A stretch of 63,770 nucleotides of DNA, counting the filler, from Armatimonadota bacterium (lineage in GTDB: Bacteria; Armatimonadota; Fimbriimonadia; Fimbriimonadales; Fimbriimonadaceae): the NCBI GenBank assembly GCA_031400935.1. It is 11 parts of 11 records of this genome, joined end to end, with 100 filler letters (N's around TTAATTAATTAA, not from the genome) between each part and the next. Parts side by side here need not be neighbours in the genome. Positions count along the whole stretch, not along the records: positions 5,951 to 10,844 come from JANNQV010000002.1; 10 more parts are not named here. The stretch is one strand, 5' to 3'. A program made the position numbers and the translations under genes. Position 1 is the first letter of the stretch, and every line of letters begins with the position of its first letter. Below, one piece after another: positions 5,851 to 33,085 of the stretch. The notes under the pieces are model-generated. The model saw nothing but the letters and a program-made list of their open reading frames with translations, was not told where the DNA came from and ran no database searches.

Positions 5851-5951
5851 NNNNNNNNNNNNNNNNNNNNNNNNNNNNNNNNNNNNNNNNNNNNTTAATT
5901 AATTAANNNNNNNNNNNNNNNNNNNNNNNNNNNNNNNNNNNNNNNNNNNNG

Positions 5952-6083
5952 AGAGACAAGCTCATTCATCACTATTTTGGTGTGAAGCTCGACATCGTTT
6001 GGGATACTGTAACGAACGTCCTTCCTGATTTCAGCGCTTCAATAACAGGCATCCTTTTAAATCGCGAAACTGGCGAACTTTGA
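5952..6083 (+). CDS. DUF86/HepT-like HEPN ribonuclease, C-terminal fragment
   Basis: Manual translation RDKLIHHYFGVKLDIVWDTV...; Rx4H motif followed by YFGV.L.IVW is typical of DUF86. Confidence 0.8.
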   Translation, partial: RDKLIHHYFGVKLDIVWDTVTNVLPDFSASITGILLNRETGEL

Positions 6084-6109
6084 GAGCCGCGAGTTTGCTA
6101 AAGCCATCC

Positions 6110-6790
6110 CTACGGCACTGCAAAAACAACCACCGAACCCGAATATTGCCCGTACCTGCCCTCTGCGCCGTAGCCTTGAACCCGGTATTCGCGCTTTTCG
6201 GCTTGGCCGGGCTCGAGAGGCGGACGCTTGTCAACAAAATGAATCGTCATCGCCACGCCAATCTGCTCCCATTCGCCATCGCTGCGGCGACAATCAACCG
6301 CCAGCAGCTTGTTTCGATTCTTGATCAGCCGCAAACGTACGTGCCAGTTCGAATCTGGAAACGCCTTCAAGGCAGGAAGTTCAGGCTCGCGCTCAGGCAA
6401 AGTGACAATTTGGTACGCCTCTCCGATTCCTGCATAATAGCCAGCCGAAGCGCGGATAATCGCAGCGAACCGGCGGGTTCGAGCTTCGATTCCGGGGAGC
6501 GCCTTTGGCGGAAAAGCTGGATTCACGGGCGGCGGAGTCGGCTGTTCGAACGCCGCGTTCGGGTTGCCAGATAGCAGAGCGTCCTTCCATGCCGTCATGG
6601 ATTCAGCATACGAACGAACCTGCAAAGCGAGGTTGACCGCAAGCTTCACCGATTCCGCATCGGCGACGATCTGGTCAATGTCAGCCAGCGTCAGCCCGTG
6701 CACCGTTCCAGTAACTTGCGCCTCGGCTGCAAAAGTGTTGTGGAACACCGCCTTCTCCGCCCCACGAATTGGATACCAATCATTCGCCAT
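6110..6790 (-). CDS. hypothetical protein, helical N-terminus plus fibronectin-III-like beta-rich C-terminus
   Basis: 226-aa ORF; its C-terminus resembles the partial ORF at 58474-58671. Fold assignment is inferred. Confidence 0.65.
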   Translation of the reverse strand: MANDWYPIRGAEKAVFHNTFAAEAQVTGTVHGLTLADIDQIVADAESVKLAVNLALQVRSYAESMTAWKDALLSGNPNAAFEQPTPPPVNPAFPPKALPGIEARTRRFAAIIRASAGYYAGIGEAYQIVTLPEREPELPALKAFPDSNWHVRLRLIKNRNKLLAVDCRRSDGEWEQIGVAMTIHFVDKRPPLEPGQAEKREYRVQGYGAEGRYGQYSGSVVVFAVP

Positions 6791-6792
6791 TT

Positions 6793-7044
6793 CGTTTTCC
6801 TATAATTAGTATACTTTACATTGATAATAGTTACCTTTTAATTTCAGAGTTGCACCTGCTCAATTTAATTAGTTCACGTTTTATCATGTTTTGACGCCTT
6901 TTAGATTCTCTATTGATACTTTCGAATATTTTAATTGCACTTTGAGATTTGCATATCTTTCTTTGTTATATTTTTATAACACTTTGTTTCTAACACAGTT
7001 TCCTTTATATCTCAGAAAGGTAACTGTCTTCTGCCCAGTTGAAC
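6793..7044. repeat. 21-bp-period degenerate array (12 units), AT-rich, non-coding
   Basis: C at 6793, 6814, 6835, 6856, 6877, 6898, 6919, 6940, 6961, 6982, 7003 and 7024. Units start CTTT in 8/12, CGTT in 2 and CTG in 2; the rest of each unit is variable. Confidence 0.85.
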
Positions 7045-7106
7045 GGAAGACTAGTAAATTGAACCTGTTTGGAGCAGCAATGCAGTGTTTCAAAAAGCAA
7101 CCGTCG

Positions 7107-7529
7107 TCAGATTTGCGTCAGGATAGCTTCGCAAGAGTTCCCAATCGCCTTCCTTCTCACCTGGTAGTTACCGTCGGGCAAATGCTCAATCTCCTTGAGC
7201 TGCTCTCCGAGATACGCAGCAGCTTTAAGCAATTGGGCTGGCATAGCATCGATATAGATGTCTCTATCAGGATTTTGCGCAAGAAACTCAAATGCTTGTT
7301 TTGCCAAAAAAACTTCGTTGAAACAGTCTCGACGTGAGACATAACCTTCTGGTCGAACCCACGTCAGCTCACTATTGTCGCTAAACCACTTGACATCATA
7401 GCCACGCCGAACAAACTCAGTTTCGAGGGCAGCTTTGAATTCGTCTATTGGACCTCCCTTGAAGCAACTAAACCGACTGACGCCAAGATTTAGTAATGCG
7501 TCGCAATACTGAGTGATGTTCATTTCCAT
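7107..7529 (-). CDS. hypothetical protein
   Basis: 140-aa ORF with TACACT 7 nt upstream of the ATG. Confidence 0.55.
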   Translation of the reverse strand: MEMNITQYCDALLNLGVSRFSCFKGGPIDEFKAALETEFVRRGYDVKWFSDNSELTWVRPEGYVSRRDCFNEVFLAKQAFEFLAQNPDRDIYIDAMPAQLLKAAAYLGEQLKEIEHLPDGNYQVRRKAIGNSCEAILTQI

Positions 7530-7692
7530 GTCTCCGAGTGTAGCACCTGGATTTGAGCATCCATACGTCTAAGTGAGTTAGATGAAGTCAAGTGTTTCAT
7601 GAAGTGAAGCCGGGAGCTGGAATAGAGCATACTTAGTTGACACCTGCCAGATGGAAGGGAGCTAACCACTTATTGCAGATTGGAGTCTGAGA

Positions 7693-9126
7693 ATGTCGAG
7701 TTCGCGTCTTTATTGCATTTTTTTCGGGGCAGTAGCCATACTGAGTTTATCATTTGCACAAGCTCAAACAGATTTGACCGCTTCTGAGGTCTTCAAGAAA
7801 TGCCAATCGTCAGTCGTGCGAATAGAAACGGATGAGTCTTTAGGTACCGGATTCTTTGTGAAGGACGGTCGCACAATTGCGACATGCCTTCACGTCTTGT
7901 CAGGAGCTAAGACCGCAAAAATCGGAACCAGTGATGGAAAGGTTTACACAATTGATAGTGTGCAGTTCGATGAGCCAAATGACATAGCCATCGTAACGAT
8001 TTCTGAGATCACTAGAACAAAGCCAGTTCAGCTTTCACTCAATTCACAACCTGAAATTGGCACGCCGATTCATGTGATTGGTAATCCTCTAGGATTTTTA
8101 GAAAGGACGCTATCGTCCGGAAGCGTTAGTGCTCTCCGAAATGAATCTGGAAAATCACTAATTCAAATATCCGCACCGATAAGTCCTGGTAGCTCAGGCA
8201 GCCCCGTTCTGAATTCAGAAGCCAGCGCCATTGGAATGGTCACTGCGTCCCAAGAAGAGGGTCAACTTCTTAACTTTGCTGTGCCATCGTCTGCAATCAA
8301 GCAAGCACTTTTGATTGAACCGATTGCTTGGTCAGTTTTCACTGAGAAGTTTAAGAAAGCGGCTACTCCATCGAAAATTGCCACAATTGACCTGACGGAT
8401 GTCTTTAATCCAACATTCAATTCTTTGAATCGAATGAAACTTATGGAATCATCGGCTTTGCAGCGATTATCTGACTCTGCGTTCCAGTCTGTGAACGCAG
8501 CGGCATCGCTAATTGAAAAGTCAGCAGATATTAATTCTCTACTAGAGCAATCTGTAGGCAAAGCAAGAGAGATGACACTGCAAACTGGTTGTCCGACTTG
8601 GTGTCGGCCCTATTACGAGAGGCTTTCAGCAATCAGTAATATTGCTAAAGAAACATACGAGCTTCAAACTCAAGCACTAATGGGATTTCAAACACGATCA
8701 AAGGACTTGGCAGAGACTGTTAAGGCTTGGATGGATTCTCGAAAGCGACAAAGTCAAGCCGAACGTGAATGGAAGACTTGGGTTTGGGAACATTTGGAAT
8801 TTAAGTGGATTCGGTTCGTCGAGGAATCCGATCCGCCTGCATTCTATTTTTCGACGGCAAGAGCCATAGTTGGTGCTTATCCTGACCCAGCATTTAAGTT
8901 TGAGACCCGAATATTTTTTACCGACGAAGCATCGAAGTTTCAAGCAGGTGATGTAATCAAAGCAATTCGATTCACGCCTGAAAGCGAATTTTCGGAAGTT
9001 ACTAATTGGAAAGAACTGAAGTTGCTGATGCTTGTTTTGCCAGAGACATCAAACGGTTTAACTTGCCGACTTAAGGTGCTCAGAAATCATGATTTAATCG
9101 AAATTGAATCGGTGATCAAGTGGTAG
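7693..9126 (+). CDS. secreted trypsin-like (S1C) serine protease with unknown C-terminal region
   Basis: Signal peptide; GTGFF, TCLHV, DIAIV, GNPLG and ISPGSSGSP catalytic triad motifs. Confidence 0.85.
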   Translation: MSSSRLYCIFFGAVAILSLSFAQAQTDLTASEVFKKCQSSVVRIETDESLGTGFFVKDGRTIATCLHVLSGAKTAKIGTSDGKVYTIDSVQFDEPNDIAIVTISEITRTKPVQLSLNSQPEIGTPIHVIGNPLGFLERTLSSGSVSALRNESGKSLIQISAPISPGSSGSPVLNSEASAIGMVTASQEEGQLLNFAVPSSAIKQALLIEPIAWSVFTEKFKKAATPSKIATIDLTDVFNPTFNSLNRMKLMESSALQRLSDSAFQSVNAAASLIEKSADINSLLEQSVGKAREMTLQTGCPTWCRPYYERLSAISNIAKETYELQTQALMGFQTRSKDLAETVKAWMDSRKRQSQAEREWKTWVWEHLEFKWIRFVEESDPPAFYFSTARAIVGAYPDPAFKFETRIFFTDEASKFQAGDVIKAIRFTPESEFSEVTNWKELKLLMLVLPETSNGLTCRLKVLRNHDLIEIESVIKW

Positions 9127-9187: not shown

Positions 9188-10844
9188 CTACAACAGCGCC
9201 GCTTGACGACTCGAATCAGGAATCCGGACAGGAACCAGAGTCGAAACCCCTGGCTCGCTCATCGTGACACCCAGCCACACCGGCGCGGCGGCGATGGTGG
9301 ACGTGTTGTGCGTGATGACGATGAACTGAATTTCCTTTGAAAAGTCCCTGAGAAGCTCGATGAACCGCTCGACGTTTCTGCCATCCAGCGGGGCGTCCAC
9401 CTCATCTAGCACCACCAGCGGGCTCGGCTTTACCTTCAAAAGTGCAAAGAGGAACGCCGTAGCGCAAAGCGAGCGCTCGCCTCCGCTGAGAAGTTCGAGC
9501 CTTTGCCTCTTCTTGCCCGGTAGCTGAACGTCAATCTCGATTCCTGATTCCAGTAGGTTTGATGGATTCGAGAGTTGGAGTTGGCCGCTTCCTTCGGGGA
9601 AGAGGCGAACGAATATCTCTTCAAACGCCTCTTGAACGGAAGAAAATGTCTCTTCGAACCTTCCGCGAGTGAGATTGTCGAGCTCCTTGATTCCGGCCTC
9701 AACATCCGAGATTCCGGCCTCGATGTCCTTGGTCTGTTCTGTCAGTTCCGTGTGGCGAGAAGTCATTCTTTCGTAGGCTTCAATCGCGCCGACATTGACG
9801 TCGCCCATGCTTCGAATTTCTCTTCTCAGCCTGCTCACAAGCTGTGAAGCGTCGCTCGGAATGTCGGTCGGAGGCTGCATTTCCAGCGCAGCTTCTTCCG
9901 TGATTCCATACTCTTCAATCAGCCTTTGCAAAGCCGCGGCCAGCTTGGATTCCATTCTCGCCCGGTTGAGTTCGGCTTGATGGAGCGCATCGCCGACGGC
10001 TTGCGAATTTGCCCTTGCTGCCTTTGCCTGCTCGCTGAGCTCGAAACTCTTCTCAAGATATTGCCTCTTTTGATCTGCGCCGCTTGCCAACTTCGCTTCG
10101 ACTTCCTTTCGCCTTTCGTCGGCTTCCAATTTCGATTTTTGGGCAGATTCAATTTCCGAAAGAGCGCGTTCTCTTTCAGGGCCGAGGTTTCCAGTTTTTC
10201 GAATCCGGTGCCCTTCGGCTTCCTCAAGTGCTGCAAGCTTCCTTTGGGACCCCGCCATTCGTTCTGCCGCAATCTTGCGCCGAGAATCTGCTTCGTGAAT
10301 TCTCGCTGAGGCGACCTCGGCATCGGCGCTGAGCGCAGAAAAGGCACGAAGGGCCTGGTCTCTTGCCCGTTCCAGGTTTGCCAGGTCAACTGGTTCGACG
10401 ACTGCTTCATTTTGTGACTGAAGCGACTGAATTTCCCTTTCTAGCTTTTCGATTTCTTTGCGAGTTGCAATCAGTTCGTGATGCACCTGAGAAGCCCACT
10501 GGTTTGCCTCGGCCGCTTCCAGTTTTTGAGTTTCCAGAACTTCCTTCAGGTTTGCAATGTGAGTTTCGATTTTCTGAATCTCTTGCAATTCTTTGGCTGA
10601 TTCCATTTCGGCCTTTTGAACTCTGGCAGAGATTTCGGCTAACTCCTCCTCAATGGCTTCCAGATCGGCTTTGCGTTGCACGACTCCGTAGGCAATCCGC
10701 GCGCCGTTCCCGCCTGTTACCGCACCGCCAGAATGAACCAACTCCCCTTCCAAAGTGACCAGCCGACTCCATCCACTCGTTTTGGCAAGTTTCAATGCAT
10801 CCGACAATGACTCAACGACCAGAATTCTTCCTAGAAGTGCATCA
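9188..10844 (-). CDS. smc: chromosome segregation protein SMC, C-terminal half (5' truncated)
   Basis: Hinge motif VTLEGE..GG.VTGG, long coiled coil, LSGGE signature, LDEVDAPLD Walker B. Confidence 0.95.
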
Positions 10845-32943: not shown

Positions 32944-33085
32944 AACAACCAACAACCAACAACCAATAACGACTTCCACCCCCACCCTGCCCTCCCCCGC
33001 AGACGCTAAGCTTGAAGAGATAAAGGTTTCGCAGTCTGCAGGGGACGGTTTCGCGCTTGCCAACCAACAACCAATAACTAACAAC
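32944..33085. repeat. heptamer (CAACCAA-type) tracts flanking a CCCCCACCCTGCCCTCCCCCGC..GCAGGGGA REP-like element
   Basis: AACCAAC runs at about 32944-32970 and 33061-33085. Confidence 0.6.

Follow-up and report, generated by a model that had tools for sequence, protein, structure and literature searches.

Introduction

Direct repeats spaced at about two turns of the DNA helix are known from several bacterial control elements. The iterons of plasmids R6K, RK2, pSC101 and P1 are direct repeats of approximately 17-22 bp, spaced at approximately two turns, that work with a Rep initiator. The parC-ParR system of plasmid R1 has a centromere array that is read by a small dimeric protein. LytTR operators (those of AgrA, ComE and AlgR, for example) contain two or three 9-bp direct repeats with spacers of 12-13 bp. 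Here we describe an array of twelve 21-bp units directly upstream of an orphan gene in a metagenome-assembled genome (MAG) of an Armatimonadota bacterium (GCA_031400935.1; G000 below). The DNA that we analysed (the window) is a stretch of 63,770 nt made of contigs of this one genome joined end to end, and all positions without a contig name refer to it. The array (6793-7044) and the gene (6110-6790, minus strand) lie at the start of a 4.9-kb contig, C2, and together make up the window locus.

Three further kinds of array are relevant. A study of plasmid pSM19035 describes dimers of omega/ParB on contiguous 7-bp heptads in direct and inverted orientation, of which at least four are needed; one native omega site consists of seven heptads, arranged ->-><-->-><-<- (PMC9499535). 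BrickBuilt of Porphyromonas gingivalis is a 23-nt minisatellite inside a miniature transposable element with inverted repeats (MITE), with one sequence family in one species (PMC4596501). A survey of guide arrays gives periods of 60-79, 18 and 5 nt and dropped clusters that combined a dominant period that was a multiple of 3 with a peak at lag 3 (bioRxiv 10.64898/2026.10.21.760802). Arrays of 21-nt units may therefore have been removed by this filter.

We found that the array and the gene form a real pairing that is conserved across phyla. The array works like iterons, plasmid centromere and operator arrays, and LytTR operators, yet it falls outside each of these classes. Like iterons, it has direct repeats at two-turn spacing beside one gene, with a lineage-specific sequence. 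Unlike iterons, it is chromosomal, it has 10-18 units at the loci described below, and in the window just 4 bp of each unit are conserved; a tblastn search of 72,556 plasmid records with the window protein gave no family member. In fold searches, where a Rep protein would show a winged helix, the C-terminal half of the adjacent protein matched only FN3 domains, and the helical matches of its N-terminal half did not rise above noise (Z up to 5.7). We rejected an iteron replicon on location: there was no plasmid match, and the contig is chromosomal in context, with SMC, TPR and protease genes.

The omega/ParB sites share with the arrays here contiguous repeats upstream of genes, and the arrays here often have a 7-nt sub-period. 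In contrast to plasmid centromeres, the unit here is 21 bp, not 7 or 11 bp, and the loci are not on plasmids. A Pfam scan of neighbouring genes at 18 loci and in the window detected no partition gene (ParA, ParM or TubZ NTPase, or ribbon-helix-helix protein). A type Ib or type II partition centromere was rejected because no NTPase or ribbon-helix-helix gene is linked to the array.

LytTR operators also have direct repeats at a centre-to-centre distance of 21 bp, but in twos or threes rather than the 10-18 found here. LytTR or LytTR-like regulators are encoded upstream at two Bacteroidota-like loci (L025 and L028), of which only L025 scores against PF04397. We rejected a LytTR-regulated operator, as PF04397 had no match in G000 (95.6% complete), whereas 5 of 14 control genomes were positive. 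CRISPR, TIGR and VIPR arrays resemble the array in that each tandem unit combines a constant with a variable part, next to the gene of a partner protein. They differ from it in that the period here is 21 nt, there is no turnover of units and there are no targets, and the protein fold is unrelated as far as tested. BrickBuilt is likewise an intergenic spacer-less array of units of about two turns with promoter elements, but it is not bound to one gene family across phyla.

Results

A strictly phased array precedes an orphan gene

The array in the window consists of twelve gap-free 21-nt units. Read on the plus strand from 6793, each unit starts C[T/G][T/G][T/C]; on the gene (minus) strand, the units of this array (6793-7044) read N17-AAAG. 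Column 1 is C in all twelve units, columns 2 and 3 are each T in ten and G in two, column 4 is T in 11 of 12, and column 9 is a pyrimidine throughout (T in nine units, C in three). A first-pass annotation made from the sequence alone had listed these unit starts, the absence of indels and the constant pyrimidine at position 9, and the column counts agree with it on all three.

The periodicity is well beyond what base composition would give. The information per column at period 21 was 0.516 bits, compared to 0.194 bits in 500 dinucleotide-preserving shuffles (z = 10.2), and the array thus passes the comparison with composition-matched shuffles that had been set in advance. Periods of 42 (z 6.9), 7 (z 6.9, a weaker sub-period) and 14 (z 5.0) were also raised. 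There was no rise at the neighbouring periods 20 (z -1.3) and 22 (z -0.9). The pattern CTTT-N17-CTTT-N17-CTTT occurs four times in the window, all inside the array, where 0.04 occurrences would be expected.

The array is AT-rich and non-coding. Its guanine-plus-cytosine (GC) content is 0.29, or 0.30 over 6791-7051, slightly above the 27% of an earlier hand count. It ends 2 nt from the ATG at 6790, as annotated. All six reading frames are closed, with 4-8 stops in each, which upholds the earlier statement that the array holds no intact heptad-coding open reading frame (ORF). Tandem Repeats Finder did not report the array, in agreement with the view that it is not a simple tandem duplication, and Rfam covariance models run over 5951-8000 gave no match at E<=1.

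The array is linked to one gene family across phyla

We compared the regions upstream of homologous genes. The loci were L005, from an Armatimonadota MAG and encoding a protein 87% identical to that of the window; 24 metagenome loci (L006-L029) with 24-43% protein identity; the paralogues in G000 (five full-length and three contig-end fragments); and loci from 23 other Armatimonadota genomes. The family was present in 24 of the 401 genomes searched (G000 included), with up to seven matches per genome. Near-duplicates (L009, L015, L019, L020, L023 and L026) were dropped, as was L032, which has only 81 nt of upstream sequence, leaving 37 loci. Every period from 6 to 45 was tested in the 450 nt upstream of the start.

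The strongest period was 21 at 27 of the 37 loci, and at five more it was 7, with 21 second. The remaining five comprise L016, where a period of 41 was strongest; L031, L046 and L047, which showed nothing clear; and L034, where the array is displaced by approximately 520 nt farther upstream, behind an inserted small ORF. None of the 37 loci preferred a period of 20 or 22. Distant members of the family (E 1e-11 to 1e-19; L053 and L055-L058) also had arrays directly upstream, with z of 9-19 at period 21 and below 5 at periods 20 and 22. Periodic flanks are thus found beside homologous genes, and the gene-plus-array system that the first-pass annotation had put forward is a genuine and conserved pairing.

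Approximately half of the loci have a gap of 60 nt or less between array and start, and at the window locus, L033, L024 and L048 the array reaches within 8 nt of the start codon. Relatives outside Armatimonadota are Bacteroidota-like and Verrucomicrobiota-like. Neighbouring genes vary between loci, and the family gene is the only one that is consistently linked to the array. Family genes are dispersed over chromosomal contigs. Viral contigs yielded no family relatives with the pattern used, and tblastn found no match to the L028 protein in phage records.

Across the whole of G000, a scan located pure non-coding arrays of 21-nt units in just five positions, three of them in front of family paralogues (on contigs C2, C18 and C62). 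A sixth copy, on contig C60 (L032), is truncated where the contig stops, and its sequence repeats that of the final three units on C18.

The register is kept and the unit sequence is free

Unit sequences are unrelated between lineages. The units are AT-rich in the window, and elsewhere they are, for example, CGCTGCCATCCTCCGCCCTGT, GGGACGTCCCGGTGTTTTGCC or GTATATGGAAGTTTATTATCC. Even the paralogues of G000 differ, with N17-AAAG on C2, TTCC-N5-GGAG on C18 and GTGG...CCAC on C62.

The comparison of the window locus with L005 resolves this column by column. The two genes are 85.7% identical, and 67.6% identical at 4-fold sites (73/108). The two arrays share 56% identity and align over 252 bp without an indel, each of the 12 units in register with its counterpart; unit number is therefore the same in both, and unit content differs by substitution. 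Five columns in the anchor region agree in 8-12 of the 12 units, reaching 12/12 at the G of AAAG, compared to 2-7 of 12 in most other columns. This pattern indicates that the register and a short anchor are under constraint. Outside the anchor, the array diverges no more slowly than synonymous sites.

No RNA run was listed among the public runs that contain this DNA. In assemblies from four DNA runs, other contigs share the 5' end of the gene and diverge upstream of 6797/6818; no variants in unit number were readable in these contigs. In runs X1 and X2, the assembly graph over 6062-6818 is broken inside the gene, short contigs over 6062-6736 carry 2-28 differences, and contigs that share 6707-6797/6818 diverge upstream. 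The samples thus contain, side by side, close copies or strains whose arrays have diverged, which also accounts for the many family genes that lie at contig ends.

The adjacent gene encodes a helical protein with an FN3 domain

The orphan gene (6110-6790, minus strand) encodes a protein of 226 aa that belongs to no Pfam, NCBIfam, PHROG or PADLOC family. An AlphaFold2 model built with 20 homologues had a mean predicted local distance difference test score (pLDDT) of 90.4. The model has a helical hairpin (helices at residues 10-27 and 35-74), followed by a linker rich in proline, a pair of short helices and, at the C terminus, a beta-sandwich. The sandwich (residues 133-226) superposes on solved FN3 domains with Z of 10.0-11.9 and a root-mean-square deviation of 2.0-2.7 A over 84-90 aligned residues, and Foldseek matches to FN3 had E of 1.7e-4 and weaker at a probability of 1.00. 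The protein does not score against the Pfam fn3 model. The C-terminal half is nonetheless an FN3 domain in the structural sense of a seven-strand beta-sandwich superposable on solved examples, and the earlier label "FN3-like" holds. The N-terminal half, folded alone, had a pLDDT of 93.9, gave no Foldseek match at E<=0.001, and had a best structural match of Z 5.7. The protein carries a strongly conserved motif, GQxExREYR, which forms a patch on the FN3 domain.

The family is large. With a cutoff of E<=1e-3, a profile search of 1.84 billion cluster representatives gave 2852 members (representatives at 50% clustering); 1700 of these passed E<=1e-10, and most are approximately 228 aa long. Among the members looked up, including ESM Atlas clusters, the only name was "hypothetical protein".

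Modelled with itself, the protein gave an interaction prediction score from aligned errors (ipSAE) of 0.83, compared to 0.00 for the best of three controls. Three model runs shared at least 66% of contacts, with a partner pLDDT of at least 84. The predicted contacts are symmetric and involve the helix at 47-77 and the linker at 79-107; the GQxExREYR patch lies outside this interface. Among proteins solved as same-chain pairs, 20 of 30 attained this ipSAE mark, as did 1 of 23 solved as single chains; these counts are only a rough guide to the dimer because we used our own alignment. These models support the prediction that the protein forms a symmetric homodimer.

Promoters and dyad symmetry point to double-stranded DNA

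Twenty-one base pairs make two turns of B-DNA, which places every unit on the same helix face, and no smaller integral number of base pairs completes whole 10.5-bp turns exactly. The exact period has a simple meaning in B-DNA, and we therefore place the function of the array at the level of DNA. The data best support action as double-stranded DNA, with a pitch of two helical turns.

We scanned the 32 loci with an array for promoters. Near-consensus sigma-70-type promoters were found at four, all of them GC-rich, and each promoter lay at the edge of the array that faces the gene: TTGACA-N17-TAAGAT in L011 and L061, TTGACA-N17-TAACAT in L014, and TTGACT-N17-TATAAT in L041. A chance origin of these matches would be unlikely in such GC-rich DNA. 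In L011 and L061, this position leaves the whole array upstream of the -35 box. In the window, the last unit contains a -10-like hexamer, TATACT (6808-6813, minus strand), 17 nt before the ATG. It is a candidate core-promoter element, suggested by sequence likeness, and it lies at the same distance from the ATG in L005; in a strict sigma-70 scan, the gene strand of the window gave no full promoter.

Many arrays have symmetric units. Within-unit dyad symmetry was detected in 14 of 32 arrays at p<=0.05 by column permutation, where approximately 1.6 would be expected.

Further features of the locus and the genome

The gene-distal end of the window array contains two inverted sequences. A hairpin of GTCTTCTG (7026-7033) and CGGAAGAC (7044-7051) is present where an 8-bp hairpin had been annotated; its arms are complementary at seven of eight positions with one T.G pair, and it is not conserved as such in L005. 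An inverted repeat at 6992-7006 and 7016-7030, with 15-nt arms, 87% complementarity and a 9-nt loop, is the better of the two. L005 has CCTTTCT/AGAAAGG at this position.

The 5' border of the array is marked by CAGGTTCAATTT (7054-7067, minus strand), and a motif [AG]GTTC[ATC][ATC] is found there in the window locus, L005, L007, L010, L011, L038 and L061. In GC-rich loci it takes the form CCAGGTTCAAAC(A/G)GG(C/T)TCAAAAC. The motif is missing from many other loci and is therefore specific to lineages rather than universal. A different 5'-border motif, ...GGCAGaAGTTCTtaAAaATgTTGGTTGGTTgTA..., is common to the AT-rich, Bacteroidota-like loci L017, L018, L021, L024, L025 and L028, approximately 420-520 nt before the ATG. 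Response regulators occur near AT-rich loci: a LytTR type at L025, a receiver plus LytTR-like protein at L028, an NtrC type at L018/L019 and a LuxR type at L027.

The ORF upstream of the window array (7107-7529, minus strand; 140 aa, without a family in Pfam, NCBIfam, PHROG or PADLOC) lies outside the conserved module. A weak period-21 signal at 9618-9858 falls inside the SMC gene and is most likely due to sequence that codes for coiled-coil heptads rather than to such an array. At L034 (G000:C62), a region of approximately 55 nt around the ribosome-binding site, including a CCCC...GGGG hairpin, is duplicated (1043-1100 and 1449-1503). At L006, on a GC-rich metagenome contig, approximately ten tandem GAACCCT heptamers stand between the 21-bp array and the start codon (482-565).

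Heptamers are also common elsewhere in G000, where 7-nt units in tandem (AAACCCT, CCCCAAA, ACCCCAT, GGTTGTC, CTCCGCA, GATTGTG, AACAACC and others) make up at least 20 arrays between genes. Examples are C62:89712-89830, C17:165-290, C65:61014-61105, C8:6357-6555 and, in the window, 32944-32970. In these arrays a G/T-rich block often precedes a C/A-rich one, and long inverted repeats are formed by some of them. They are reminiscent of the short tandemly repeated repetitive (STRR) heptamers of cyanobacteria. Many of the 21-nt arrays likewise have a strong 7-nt sub-period.

Discussion

The array is phase-locked and non-coding, it accompanies one gene family across phyla, and at some loci it lies next to a promoter. 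Our leading explanation, still a tentative one, is that it serves as a docking platform upstream of the promoter, with its sites held in helical phase on one face of the DNA. The array would be a cis-acting element of double-stranded DNA directly upstream of, and partly overlapping, the core promoter of the orphan gene. With units locked to two turns of B-DNA, one short feature (here AAAG) recurs on the same face approximately twelve times. Copies of a protein may dock side by side on this multi-site array and so set the transcription of the gene.

Several observations weigh against a docking platform that serves this gene family. Two of the five G000 arrays precede unrelated genes. One, with units GGCGGTTTCCCGCYNRGTTGT (G000:C32:77174-77363; L066), lies between an L25/Ctc ribosomal protein gene and a gene for a protein of 281 aa that matches the PADLOC candidate defence family PDC-S14 (E 3e-98) and carries DUF4357. 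The other, with units TTGAAGAAGACCTTCCCGACY (G000:C46:13098-13245; L067), lies upstream of a 319-aa orphan gene that has no Pfam or PADLOC family; a relationship of this orphan to the FN3 family was considered and dropped (hhalign probability 0.4%). Conversely, the paralogue on C17 (L031) and the gene at L046 have no array. Near-consensus promoters were missing, in the strict scan, from 28 of the 32 array-bearing loci, and at L041 the periodic stretch lies partly downstream of the predicted promoter, so that some units may be transcribed. The window array has no dyad symmetry (p 0.34), and the 4-bp anchor that it keeps offers little to a sequence-specific binder. No DNA-binding fold is recognisable in the adjacent protein, the best match of its N-terminal half (Z 5.7) being within noise for helical models. 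Finally, unit sequences change even between close relatives. In the pairs L011/L061 and L042/L062, whose proteins are 83-84% identical, consensus units compared at their best circular shift match at 10-11 of 21 positions, against a mean of 9.3 for distant pairs. The array flanks are conserved between L011 and L061, and the positions of the residue differences between these close proteins form no clear specificity patch.

The main rival, and the more novel one, is that the module templates itself. Dimers of the helical-FN3 protein would polymerise along their own array, one per two turns, either for autoregulation or as a nucleoprotein filament. This is suggested by the standing of the family gene as the only consistent partner of the array across phyla, and the predicted symmetric homodimer (ipSAE 0.83) would fit the dyad-symmetric units of the 14 arrays. 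In the model, the 40-residue helix is approximately 6 nm long, of the same order as 21 bp (7.1 nm), and the conserved GQxExREYR patch is left free by the predicted dimer interface. Yet fold searches found no DNA-binding fold, proteins that are 83-84% identical stand beside unrelated unit sequences, arrays also front two unrelated genes, and the C17 paralogue has none. We consider self-templating unlikely on this balance. The first-pass annotation had proposed a DNA scaffold for a protein, perhaps the product of the adjacent gene; its DNA part, action at two turns, is the part that the data back, and the adjacent product is one candidate, of low probability, for the binder.

A broader proposal goes further. 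The array might be a pitch-coded control element that spans phyla and in which exact two-turn register counts for more than sequence, with a filament of helical-FN3 dimers as its partner, the whole acting as a switch for fast-evolving, multi-copy genes of a "conflict" type. The G000 array in front of the PDC-S14 candidate defence gene could be cited for it. The proposal is speculative, and we consider it unlikely.

Architectural DNA that acts regardless of sequence is clearly unlikely, despite two points in its favour. Here, bends or soft spots in phase would make the DNA curved or wrappable and tune the promoter with no dedicated reader. This would account for a kept pitch with free letters, even between genes for 83-84%-identical proteins, and for such arrays before unrelated genes. 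But in a wedge model with provisional parameters, only 2 of 24 arrays were more curved than 90% of period-preserving column permutations, and several were nearly straight. The window array exceeded 97% of plain shuffles in curvature, but just 73% of the period-preserving permutations. These predictions weaken a reading by pure curvature, and neither the conserved cores nor the excess of dyad symmetry would be expected from curvature alone.

A periodic leader RNA is quite improbable. The array would be transcribed as a long 5' untranslated region whose units, as hairpins or AAAG anchors, bind copies of a protein. Consistent with this, the array comes within 8 nt of the start codon at four loci, hairpins of 4-7 bp are possible in many units, and the periodic stretch of L041 continues past the predicted promoter; VIPR offers a precedent for a protein filament on periodic RNA. 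Against it, the promoters of L011, L061 and L014 lie downstream of the array, the units of the window and of L011 do not fold, and the Rfam search gave no match. G.U and A.C mismatches in putative stems numbered 18:2 in L062, 2:21 in L061 and 8:27 in L007, counts that are not independent between units. There is thus no consistent bias of G.U over A.C, and a hairpin in gene-strand RNA is not the general form. The exact 21-nt period is natural in B-DNA, and we know of no natural reason for it in RNA. The leader RNA that the first-pass annotation had offered as an alternative is disfavoured as a general form.

The remaining two readings are very improbable. A decayed heptad-repeat (coiled-coil) gene could draw on 21 nt being seven codons and on the L-x6 heptads of the in-phase plus frame, and a functionless neutral minisatellite on unequal crossing-over, which maintains any period once set, but no relative has a consistent intact ORF over the array, independent lineages all sit at 21 and never at 20 or 22, there is no indel over 252 bp despite 56% identity, and the array always lies 5' of one gene family. 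Seven of 32 arrays, including that of the window and every AT-rich array, are closed in all six frames, and the open frames of GC-rich arrays share neither frame nor strand; we rejected a heptad-repeat coding region because the relatives' arrays have no consistent open frame. A minimal guide array in the manner of CRISPR, TIGR or VIPR would explain a constant and a variable part in each unit beside an uncharacterised protein, but the variable parts of the window and L005 differ by point substitution in homologous units with no turnover, GC-rich relatives have nearly uniform arrays, no family member turned up in viral contigs, phage records or plasmid records, and the guide periods given in the survey are 5, 18 and 60-79 nt (bioRxiv 10.64898/2026.10.21.760802). 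The eleven variable 17-mers of the window array had no match in their own genome at one mismatch or fewer, and no excess beyond that (3 at two or fewer, 5.3 expected; 61 at three or fewer, 72 expected). CRISPR was rejected both as an array, since a complete unit spans 21 nt with just 4 of them constant, and for spacer turnover, since the 12 units are those of L005 and self-matches show no excess; the annotation had also excluded CRISPR, and its alternative of repeats with variable spacers is disfavoured on the same grounds.

In the full texts of the literature, supplements aside, we found no description of a 21-bp array tied to this family, and 21-nt cases may be present among the periodic clusters that the Evo-PIN preprint lists. 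The gene-plus-array module thus appears to be conserved and undescribed. Phased operator arrays are known on plasmids; for a chromosomal version that serves a single gene, with 10-18 units and free sequence, we found no description. Automated surveys that discard periods divisible by three may miss a whole class of 21-bp arrays. For the family itself, the finding ties a large and nameless group of proteins to a long non-coding array that keeps only its pitch. If the docking protein were identified, it would reveal how register in DNA is read by a cell, and the array would offer a compact, re-programmable part for promoter control.

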